Source: Escherichia coli
GTDB lineage: Bacteria; Pseudomonadota; Gammaproteobacteria; Enterobacterales; Enterobacteriaceae
DNA: 64,000 nucleotides
Direction: 5' to 3' (one strand)
Assembly: GCF_003334385.1 (NCBI RefSeq)
Contig: NZ_QOWN01000012.1
Below, piece after piece: positions 34,876 to 50,552 of the stretch. The notes beneath the pieces are model-generated. The model saw only the letters and a list, made by a program, of their open reading frames with translations, ran no database searches and was not told the origin of the DNA. Position 1 is the stretch's first letter; every line of letters begins with the position of its first letter. The translations under genes and the position numbers were made by a program.

Positions 34876-35014
34876 TAAAGCCCTCACCGAAGCGAGGGCT
34901 TGAAGGAGAAGGGTTATGATGCGACTTGTCATCATACTGATTGTACTGTTACTCATAAGTTTCAGCGCTTATTAACAGTCAGTCTCAGGGGAGGAGCAAT
35001 CCTCCCTTACCCTT
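34876..35014 (-). ncRNA. sibC: SibC antisense RNA (type I antitoxin); boundaries approximate
   Basis: Minus-strand promoter with -35 TTGACA (35045-35050), 17-bp spacer and -10 TAATTT (35022-35027); hairpin at 34878-34901 as the probable 3' end; fully covers the ibsC ORF on the opposite strand; about 140 nt as expected for Sib RNAs. Confidence 0.5.
34916..34975 (+). CDS. ibsC: 19-aa hydrophobic type I toxin peptide IbsC
   Basis: Perfect SD AAGGAG 8 nt upstream; tandem ATG ATG; peptide MMRLVIILIVLLLISFSAY; TAA stop; below the ORF-track length cut-off. Confidence 0.65.
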   Translation: MMRLVIILIVLLLISFSAY

Positions 35015-48713: not shown

Positions 48714-49376
<663 letters not shown>

Positions 49377-49384
49377 TGGGTATG

Positions 49385-49566
49385 CCTTTGTAGGCCTGAT
49401 AAGACGCGCCAGCGTCGCATCAGGCATCGGAGCACAACTGCCGGATTCGGCGTGAACGCCTTATCCGATCTACGGGCCTCGTCCCTGTTGTGATAAAGGC
49501 ATCAAATCCCAGACATGATAAGACGCGCCAGCGTCGCATCAGGCGATAAATGCCTGATGCGATAAA
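49385..49566. repeat. BIME cluster: at least three REP units in alternating orientation
   Basis: REP cores at about 49391-49426, 49441-49472 and 49515-49545 between convergent yqfA and ygfZ. Confidence 0.7.
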
Positions 49567-49571
49567 GAGAT

Positions 49572-50552
49572 TTACTCTTCGAGCGAATACGGCAGCGGCT
49601 CGATATGCAATGTATTCGCATCGTCGCGTACGCGGAAGATGCTATCCGGTTCCATATCGTTATTCATGACGACCTGTACCACGACCTGACCATCTTCCAG
49701 TTTTACCGCAGCCAGTACCGTACCGGTACGACGCCAGTTCTCGCCCATTTTCAGCTCTAAGTCTTCACCAGCTTCCGGCAGTCGGCTGGCGCTACCTGCC
49801 AGCAACCAGAGCGCACGTTTATTGGCACCACGGAATTTTGCTCGCGCCACCATCTCTTGTCCGGTATAACAGCCTTTCTTAAAGCTGATACCGCCCAGCG
49901 CCTGGAGATTGGTCGCCTGTGGGATAAACTGCCCGCTGTTGGCGGCATCAATCACCGGGAAACCCGCTTCAATGTTTAATGCCAGCCACTGTTGGCTATT
50001 GTTCAGTTCCGCTTCACCGCGCAGTTTATCGGTCAGCATATTAGCAGTAGCTTCATCGGTTACGATCAGGAAACGTTCTGCCGGGTGTTCAAACCATAGC
50101 AAAGTGGTCGCGCCTTCTTTGACTACCTGTTTTTCTTTCGAAGGCAGTTCGCTAAAGAGATTTGCCAGCGCGGCGCGCGCCTGAAAACCGGCAACACCAA
50201 GCAGCACACGCTCGTCGTCTGGCGCGATGGTCACTTTAGAGAATACCGCATATTTTTTCAGTTCAGTCAGCTGCGGTTCACGCACGCTGCGCCGTTCAAT
50301 CCATGCAAAGCCATCGCCGTCGCGGAACAGACGTAAATTGCTCCACATTTTACCTTTGGCGTCGCAATGGGCGGCGAGCAGGTGCTGATCTTCTGCCATC
50401 TGGCTGACATCTGCTGTCACCTGACCCTGCATATATTTTTCGCTGTCCGCGCCAGTAATGGTGGCAAGCGCCCAGTCATCAAGCGTCATCAGCGTCAGCG
50501 GTAAACGGGCAGAAGCCGTAGGCTGACGGGGAGGAAAAGGTGTAAAAGCCAT
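49572..50552 (-). CDS. ygfZ: tRNA-modifying / Fe-S cluster repair folate-binding protein YgfZ
   Basis: 326-aa [37 protein letters not shown]...; GcvT-like fold by recognition. Confidence 0.85.

Follow-up and report, generated by a model that had tools for sequence, protein, structure and literature searches.

A REP cluster of probable BIME-2 type between the convergent genes trhA and ygfZ of Escherichia coli

REPs and BIMEs have been catalogued in Escherichia coli K-12 for decades. BIME-1 contains one Y and one Z1 unit with a long linker carrying an IHF site and occurs in single copy, BIME-2 is a tandem array of two to twelve units, Y and Z2, in which the linker is short, and every other combination of units is classed as an atypical BIME; that the number of BIME-2 units differs between strains has already been published (PMC3333891, PMC1187871). 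In the naRNA4 RNA, a short linker connects a Y motif with a Z2 motif (Qian et al., PMC4550694). The E. coli gene of the REP-associated transposase, yafM, is flanked by Y and Z2 (PMC2817692), and the REP-associated transposase needs both the GTAG and the mismatch in the stem (PMC3333891). With regard to function, REP hairpins in 3' UTRs block exonucleases and stabilise the upstream mRNA, BIMEs attenuate transcription and REPs near a stop codon can stall ribosomes (summary in PMC12306157), and gyrase prefers BIME-2, where Y units are cleaved more often than Z2 (PMC6379681).

The window, that is the whole 64-kb stretch of DNA analysed here, corresponds as its reverse complement to positions 3,027,865-3,091,865 of MG1655 with 99.98% identity from end to end (10 mismatches and one gap in the alignment). 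The genes trhA and ygfZ are convergent, and the gap between their stop codons (49377-49571) is exactly 195 bp, as the initial annotation of this DNA had given it. The gap in MG1655, at 3,042,294-3,042,488, has the same 195 bp, and the MG1655 RefSeq annotation gives no repeat features for it.

Comparison with the described systems indicated that the trhA-ygfZ cluster is very probably a BIME-2 in the 3' region shared by the two genes in K-12-like E. coli, which is the best explanation of the cluster as a whole; the element is thus of an already known kind and lies at a locus of the reference genome. It resembles other BIME-2 in the alternating Y and Z2 units, the short head-to-head linker, the extragenic position at the 3' ends of genes and a tandem number that varies with the strain while the locus is still occupied in all strains read. 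It differs from them in its small size (three units and a fragment, one unit having a decayed GTAG foot) and in its tail-to-tail linker (the position of the s, l or r motifs), which at megablast sensitivity is specific to the locus. With REP325/naRNA4 it shares the Y-linker-Z2 unit, matching above the Rfam gathering score, but it lies at another locus, has one such unit where REP325 has six, and this unit is absent from most E. coli. BIME-1/RIB/RIP elements belong to the same REP superfamily and share the Y unit, while their short Z1 unit, their long tail-to-tail linker with an IHF site and their single-copy state were not found at trhA-ygfZ. As in the subterminal hairpins of IS200/IS605 and of REPtrons (TnpA_REP/RAYT, yafM), GTAG-footed imperfect palindromes with an internal mismatch are present; unlike in these, there is no transposase gene near trhA-ygfZ (no tnpA_REP (RAYT) gene is annotated in the MG1655 region matching the window) and R3 is without GTAG.

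REP units in the trhA-ygfZ gap

Units were located by blastn-short with three E. coli REP consensus sequences, by a repeat finder and by nhmmer, using a REP profile built from the window's own units and a significance level of E<1e-3. These searches revealed four REP-derived pieces in the gap (Table 1). The BIME that had been claimed between convergent yqfA and ygfZ, with at least three REP units, two of them sharing a subtype and one of another, was therefore borne out, the units being two Z2 and one Y; the 11-nt Z-head fragment is a piece additional to those reported before.

Table 1. Positions of the features at the trhA-ygfZ locus and at the other REP sites of the window, with calculated hairpin energies
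Feature	Position	Strand	Hairpin energy (+ / -), kcal/mol	Basis or remark
trhA (formerly yqfA) CDS	48717-49376	+		ORF list and MG1655 annotation b2899; stop TAA 49374-49376
REP unit R1, Z2 type	49390-49425	-	-20.5 / -21.4	36/36 to long Z consensus; nhmmer E 4e-9; hairpin with typical REP internal mismatch
Head-to-head linker R1/Y, 14 nt, S-like	49426-49439			Aligned to the 13-nt linker of the naRNA4 model
119-bp variable unit	49426-49544			Absent, single or double by strain; register arbitrary within the Z2 repeat
REP unit R2, Y type	49440-49473	+	-14.1 / -14.4	GCGTGAACGCC loop region; nhmmer E 2.7e-9; CTAC 49470-49473; hairpin with typical REP internal mismatch
Tail-to-tail linker, 35 nt, locus-specific	49474-49508			51-nt query across linker, one place per genome
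REP unit R3, Z2 type, decayed foot	49509-49544	-	-12.0 / -12.7 (R3 alone)	nhmmer E 2.7e-7; 32/36 (manual count)
R3 head with fragment	49534-49544 and 49552-49562		-21.9 / -20.3	z -6.3 and -7.2
Z-head fragment, 11 nt	49552-49562	+		Inverted repeat, 100% complementary to 49534-49544
ygfZ CDS	49572-50552	-		ORF list and MG1655 annotation b2898; stop TAA 49572-49574
Truncated Y REP between metK and galP	3929-3953			First two thirds left, tail lost; fourth site, not named in the initial annotation
speB-loiP cluster	9030-9176			Three units (Y-like, hybrid, Y-like); convergent genes
fbaA-mscS element	21766-21863			Z1 21766-21794 (+), 35-nt linker, Y 21830-21863 (-)

The pieces alternate in orientation, being -, +, - and (+) for R1, Y, R3 and the fragment. 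R1, which begins 13 nt past the trhA stop codon and has its stem beginning 17 nt past it, reads GCC...CTAC on the - strand, its GTAG lying on the + strand at 49390-49393. The Y unit R2 agrees with the Y consensus at 31 of 34 positions by manual count, and BLAST aligned 28 nt of it at 96%. R3 repeats R1 directly, with a spacing of 119 and 94% over 34 nt in the repeat finder; the core of R3 at 49516-49544 is the same 29-nt core as that of R1 (29/29), and its foot reads CCAGACA in place of GTAGGCC. The GTAG/CTAC foot is accordingly present in R1 and Y and replaced by CCAG in R3. The units are imperfect palindromes of 30-40 nt; R1 and Y fold with two stem segments on either side of a 2x2 internal loop, and R3 is weaker. 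The units match the Y or Z consensus and belong to a dispersed extragenic family, a query of the region including both flanking gene ends finding a median of 11 places per genome (megablast, 5426 E. coli genomes).

Two further similarities were seen in this stretch. A 15-nt direct repeat (13/15) joins 49484-49498 and 49553-49567, with a chance probability estimated at roughly 0.03, and the tail-to-tail linker may hold a decayed copy of the Z-head fragment with ATAAAG, which would hint at an older duplication. A 12-nt inverted repeat (11/12) pairs the head of the Y unit (49438-49449) with the last ygfZ codons (49584-49595); about 0.07 pairs of this type are expected by chance in that stretch, and a K-12-specific G-to-T change in the Y head takes the repeat from 10/12, as in the divergent Escherichia genome E69, to 11/12.

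Subtype of the cluster and other REP sites of the window

The Rfam model RF02564 (naRNA4), for which the gathering score is 59.5, reached 75 bits on the - strand at 49393-49470, and in this alignment R1 falls on the half of the model reading GCCUGAUGCGACGCUUGCGCGUCUUAUCAGGCC. This is the Z2 half of naRNA4 as defined by Qian et al. (PMC4550694), and therefore the long Z form is Z2. A reading of the long Z form as Z1, which would have led to a BIME-1-like or atypical element, was rejected on the same alignment and definition. The gap contains no match to the exact IHF consensus, and none anywhere in its 195 bp to the IHF motif WATCAANNNNTTR with up to 1 mismatch. Since the units are Z2 alternating with Y, the head-to-head linker (S) is short, with 14 nt, and an IHF-like site is lacking from the gap, the trhA-ygfZ locus is assigned to BIME-2; the tandem variability of this class was also found, the 119-bp unit being present 0, 1 or 2 times among strains.

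The same Rfam match could instead mark a dedicated gene for a small RNA of the naRNA4 type, the two-hairpin Z2-Y RNA of which would, together with HU, form bridges between DNA cruciforms and condense the nucleoid. According to Qian et al. (PMC4550694), transcription reaches about 80% of REP elements, and for such RNAs the two hairpins matter and not the exact sequence. The naRNA4 model is, however, in effect a Y and Z2 pair of REPs that any BIME-2 unit should match, and naRNA4 was described from a different locus, REP325. A promoter and terminator scan inside 49377-49571 gave no promoter-like and no terminator-like site, so that any naRNA4-like RNA would be a by-product of read-through from ygfZ, and about 63% of E. 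coli genomes are without the Y unit. A dedicated RNA gene is for these reasons very unlikely.

The REP profile (E<1e-3) found significant units at 3929, at 9030, 9075 and 9143, at 21766 and 21830, and in the trhA-ygfZ cluster. These are four sites only, all intergenic, which is the number that the initial annotation had counted in the 64 kb. With up to 2 mismatches allowed, the REP tail motif CTTATCMGGCCTAC matches the window 9 times where 0.30 matches are expected, far more than chance would give, and a count of 9 was reached in 0 of 100 shuffles. Alignment of all REP units in the window, which had been proposed as a check with a failure to align as the contrary outcome, revealed that the units align with one another across clusters with a mean column identity of 79%, and such a failure was therefore not observed. 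The claim that trhA-ygfZ is of the same family as the speB-loiP and fbaA-mscS clusters holds for the REP superfamily but not for the BIME subtype.

The speB-loiP site is an atypical Y/hybrid/Y cluster, the hybrid unit (9075-9110, - strand) having a Y-type stem and a Z2-like loop, and naRNA4 matched there with 53.5 bits, below the gathering score. The flanks of this cluster are also duplicated, with a period of about 113 bp. Directly next to the Y remnant between metK and galP, the metK strand has a hairpin and T run resembling a terminator (about 3959-3990).

At fbaA-mscS the short Z unit (GCCTGATGCGCTACGCTTATCAGGCCTAC) is Z1, and the linker carries an IHF-like site at 21805-21817 (-) within 1 mismatch of WATCAANNNNTTR. 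These sequence features make the element BIME-1/RIB-like, unlike the subtype at trhA-ygfZ. A BIME-1 or RIB/RIP element with an IHF-binding role might also be suggested for trhA-ygfZ itself, where REPs in inverted orientation flank a linker at the 3' ends of transcription units. This is hardly credible, because there the Z units are the long Z2 and not Z1, R1 and Y are separated by a head-to-head linker of 14 nt, the IHF motif found in the fbaA-mscS linker has no match in the gap, and the locus varies in tandem number, which BIME-1 does not (PMC3333891, PMC1187871).

Some Rfam matches were recorded elsewhere in the window. ES036 (RF02751) matched 21787-21829 (-) with 47.3 bits against a gathering score of 37.6; this match spans the last 8 nt of the fbaA-mscS Z1 unit and the entire linker, and the ES036 'sRNA' family appears to model mainly the BIME-1 linker. 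V_AS5 matched in the pgk-fbaA intergenic region, 20468-20587 (+), with 38.9 bits, far below its gathering score of 96. Strong matches were given by SIB RNA (sibC, with ibsC) and 6S RNA (ssrS) at 34900-35050 and 35699-35882, which agree with the MG1655 annotation and are unrelated to the REP cluster.

Alleles of the gap in E. coli and related species

A query of 451 nt spanning the gap recovered the locus from 5,426 of 5,426 complete RefSeq E. coli genomes, with three spans, and the examples read had gaps of 76, 195 and 314 bp, the steps being whole 119-bp units. The 76-bp gap is present in about 63% of these genomes, the 195-bp gap in 37% and the 314-bp gap in one. A 51-nt query for the tail-to-tail linker matched 2,031 of the 5,426 genomes (37.4%), in one place each except for one genome with two, and had no matches away from the locus in this collection, which is not a random sample of the species and in which megablast could miss a strongly diverged linker. 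Among the genomes free of the linker, 17 of 17 sampled had a span of 331-332 nt, and the nine gaps that were read were all 76 bp. About 63% of the complete genomes are without the Y unit and without one of the two Z2 units, and E. coli can thus dispense with the full cluster. In a single genome of the 5,426, that of ETEC1716, the 119-bp unit occurs twice, and the two copies are 100% identical (Tandem Repeats Finder: period 119, 2.2 copies, 100% matches); the 314-bp allele of this genome reflects either an expansion of recent date or an artefact of assembly.

A degenerate pattern covering the last eleven trhA codons was run against one genome per species and returned four loci, those of E69, E. 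albertii and two Pseudocitrobacter genomes. E69 is a divergent Escherichia genome, which by the design of the collection forms a separate species-level cluster, with a record titled E. coli. It has a 195-bp gap with the parts in the same order as in the window. Identity between E69 and the window is 85.1% in the gap, 94.2% in trhA and 94.9% in ygfZ, and third codon positions differ by 15% in trhA and 12.8% in ygfZ. By part, the matches are 31/36 for R1, 13/14 for the short linker, 31/34 for Y, 26/35 for the tail-to-tail linker and 33/36 for R3. The linker of E69 was not found in the 5,426 RefSeq E. coli genomes, and 21 nt of the K-12 linker gave nothing in the scan of one genome per species. 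As E69 has the same 195-bp architecture, the long architecture is older than the split from E69, and the short forms have therefore most likely arisen by repeated deletion from one Z2 copy to the other.

Each of the short alleles that were read has the REP variant of one of the long lineages. Those of JE86 and 21B8 match K-12, that of WP3-W18 matches the F3_13 lineage exactly, and those of M172, CE2050, JNE120442, VTB97432 and FCI51 have the GAAAAGACAC tail as in R1 of E69. The most economical account of these sequences would be that the direct Z2 repeats recombined or slipped to give three or more independent deletions and that one rare expansion took place, the deletions being counted on a handful of alleles and not on a tree. 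The cores of R1 and R3 are identical over 29 nt in K-12, differ at one position in F3_13 and at five in E69, and both Z2 cores of F3_13 carry T where both K-12 copies have C, which suggests that within a lineage the two Z2 copies have been homogenised.

Both Pseudocitrobacter genomes have two tail-to-tail REPs in the trhA-ygfZ gap (3040-3125 of locus L011 and 4480-4565 of locus L012). The REP on the trhA side is in the orientation opposite to that of R1 in E. coli and the arrangement is not orthologous, from which we conclude that the gap in Pseudocitrobacter was occupied independently. The contig of E. albertii NBRC 107761 ends 62 nt past the trhA stop codon, in decayed REP-like sequence (GTATGCTTGAAAAGACAC...; locus L010, 1-62), and this end is probably an assembly break at the repeat.

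Hairpins and proposed function

Folding of 221 nt around the gap gave -92.7 kcal/mol on the + strand and -90.4 on the - strand (z -4.65 and -4.76). The head of R3 and the fragment form a perfect hairpin of 11-12 bp with a 7-nt loop, which is the strongest of the gap, ends 9 nt from the ygfZ stop codon and is present in every allele read. In a manual reading, VTB97432 and FCI51 have an A-to-T change in the REP head that pairs with the A of the fragment, where E69 has an A-A mismatch. For the Z2 stem, 88% of cells were paired among nine copies from the trhA-ygfZ locus, against 16-39% with the partner slid by 1-3 columns. Two pairs of the stem change on both sides, one being G-C to A-U (three alleles, one unpaired intermediate), and the covariation score of these nine sequences was reached by 31 of 500 shuffles. 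The covariation of the Z2 stem is thus only weakly positive, which is consistent with maintenance of the hairpin and is not proof of it. That the hairpin of R3 head and fragment is a selected element for ygfZ, serving translation termination or the mRNA 3' end, and not repeat debris, with the copy number of the 119-bp unit perhaps tuning trhA and ygfZ, seems unlikely.

Strong GC-rich hairpins on both strands, placed directly after both stop codons, might also be expected of a bidirectional intrinsic (Rho-independent) terminator that serves the convergent genes and is merely REP-like. None of the hairpins in the gap is followed by a T/U run, however, the terminator scan inside 49377-49571 was empty, and the hairpins are members of a dispersed family of repeats, for which megablast gave a median of 11 places per genome. 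An intrinsic terminator is accordingly a highly improbable explanation of the cluster, and BIME-2 is retained.

Because the gap has no intrinsic terminator, the trhA and ygfZ transcripts probably both run into the REP cluster. By analogy with described REPs, the hairpins of this BIME-2 would block 3'-to-5' exonucleases, and in this way define and stabilise the 3' ends of both mRNAs, and they may damp read-through into the opposing gene. The hairpin 9 nt past the ygfZ stop codon would be near enough to interfere with terminating ribosomes. The distance criterion of Liang et al. 2015 for ribosome stalling is reportedly about 15 nt from the stop codon. At the DNA level, the Y unit would be a candidate gyrase site. 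The gene names trhA and ygfZ are absent from the supplements examined of the gyrase Topo-seq paper (PMC6379681) and from those examined of the RepRanger paper; a literature search found no paper that discusses the trhA-ygfZ REP locus.

The features required by TnpA_REP, GTAG and the mismatch, are both kept by R1 (on the + strand) and by Y (on the - strand); R3 is without the GTAG. The cluster may be a non-autonomous relative of IS200/IS605 ends, which would depend on the tyrosine transposase yafM elsewhere in the genome, and its copy number would shift by recombination or slippage between the directly repeated Z2 copies.

Beyond its correct annotation, the trhA-ygfZ cluster matters little. On a small scale it illustrates cleanly how directly repeated REPs undergo recurrent deletion and, rarely, expansion, how two Z2 copies are homogenised in a lineage, and how REPs occupy the same convergent-gene gap independently in a second genus, Pseudocitrobacter. 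It also gives a caution, since the Rfam 'sRNA' families naRNA4 and ES036 fire on ordinary parts of BIMEs. If the hairpin next to ygfZ were selected, the number of 119-bp units might tune the expression or the antisense read-through of trhA and ygfZ between strains.
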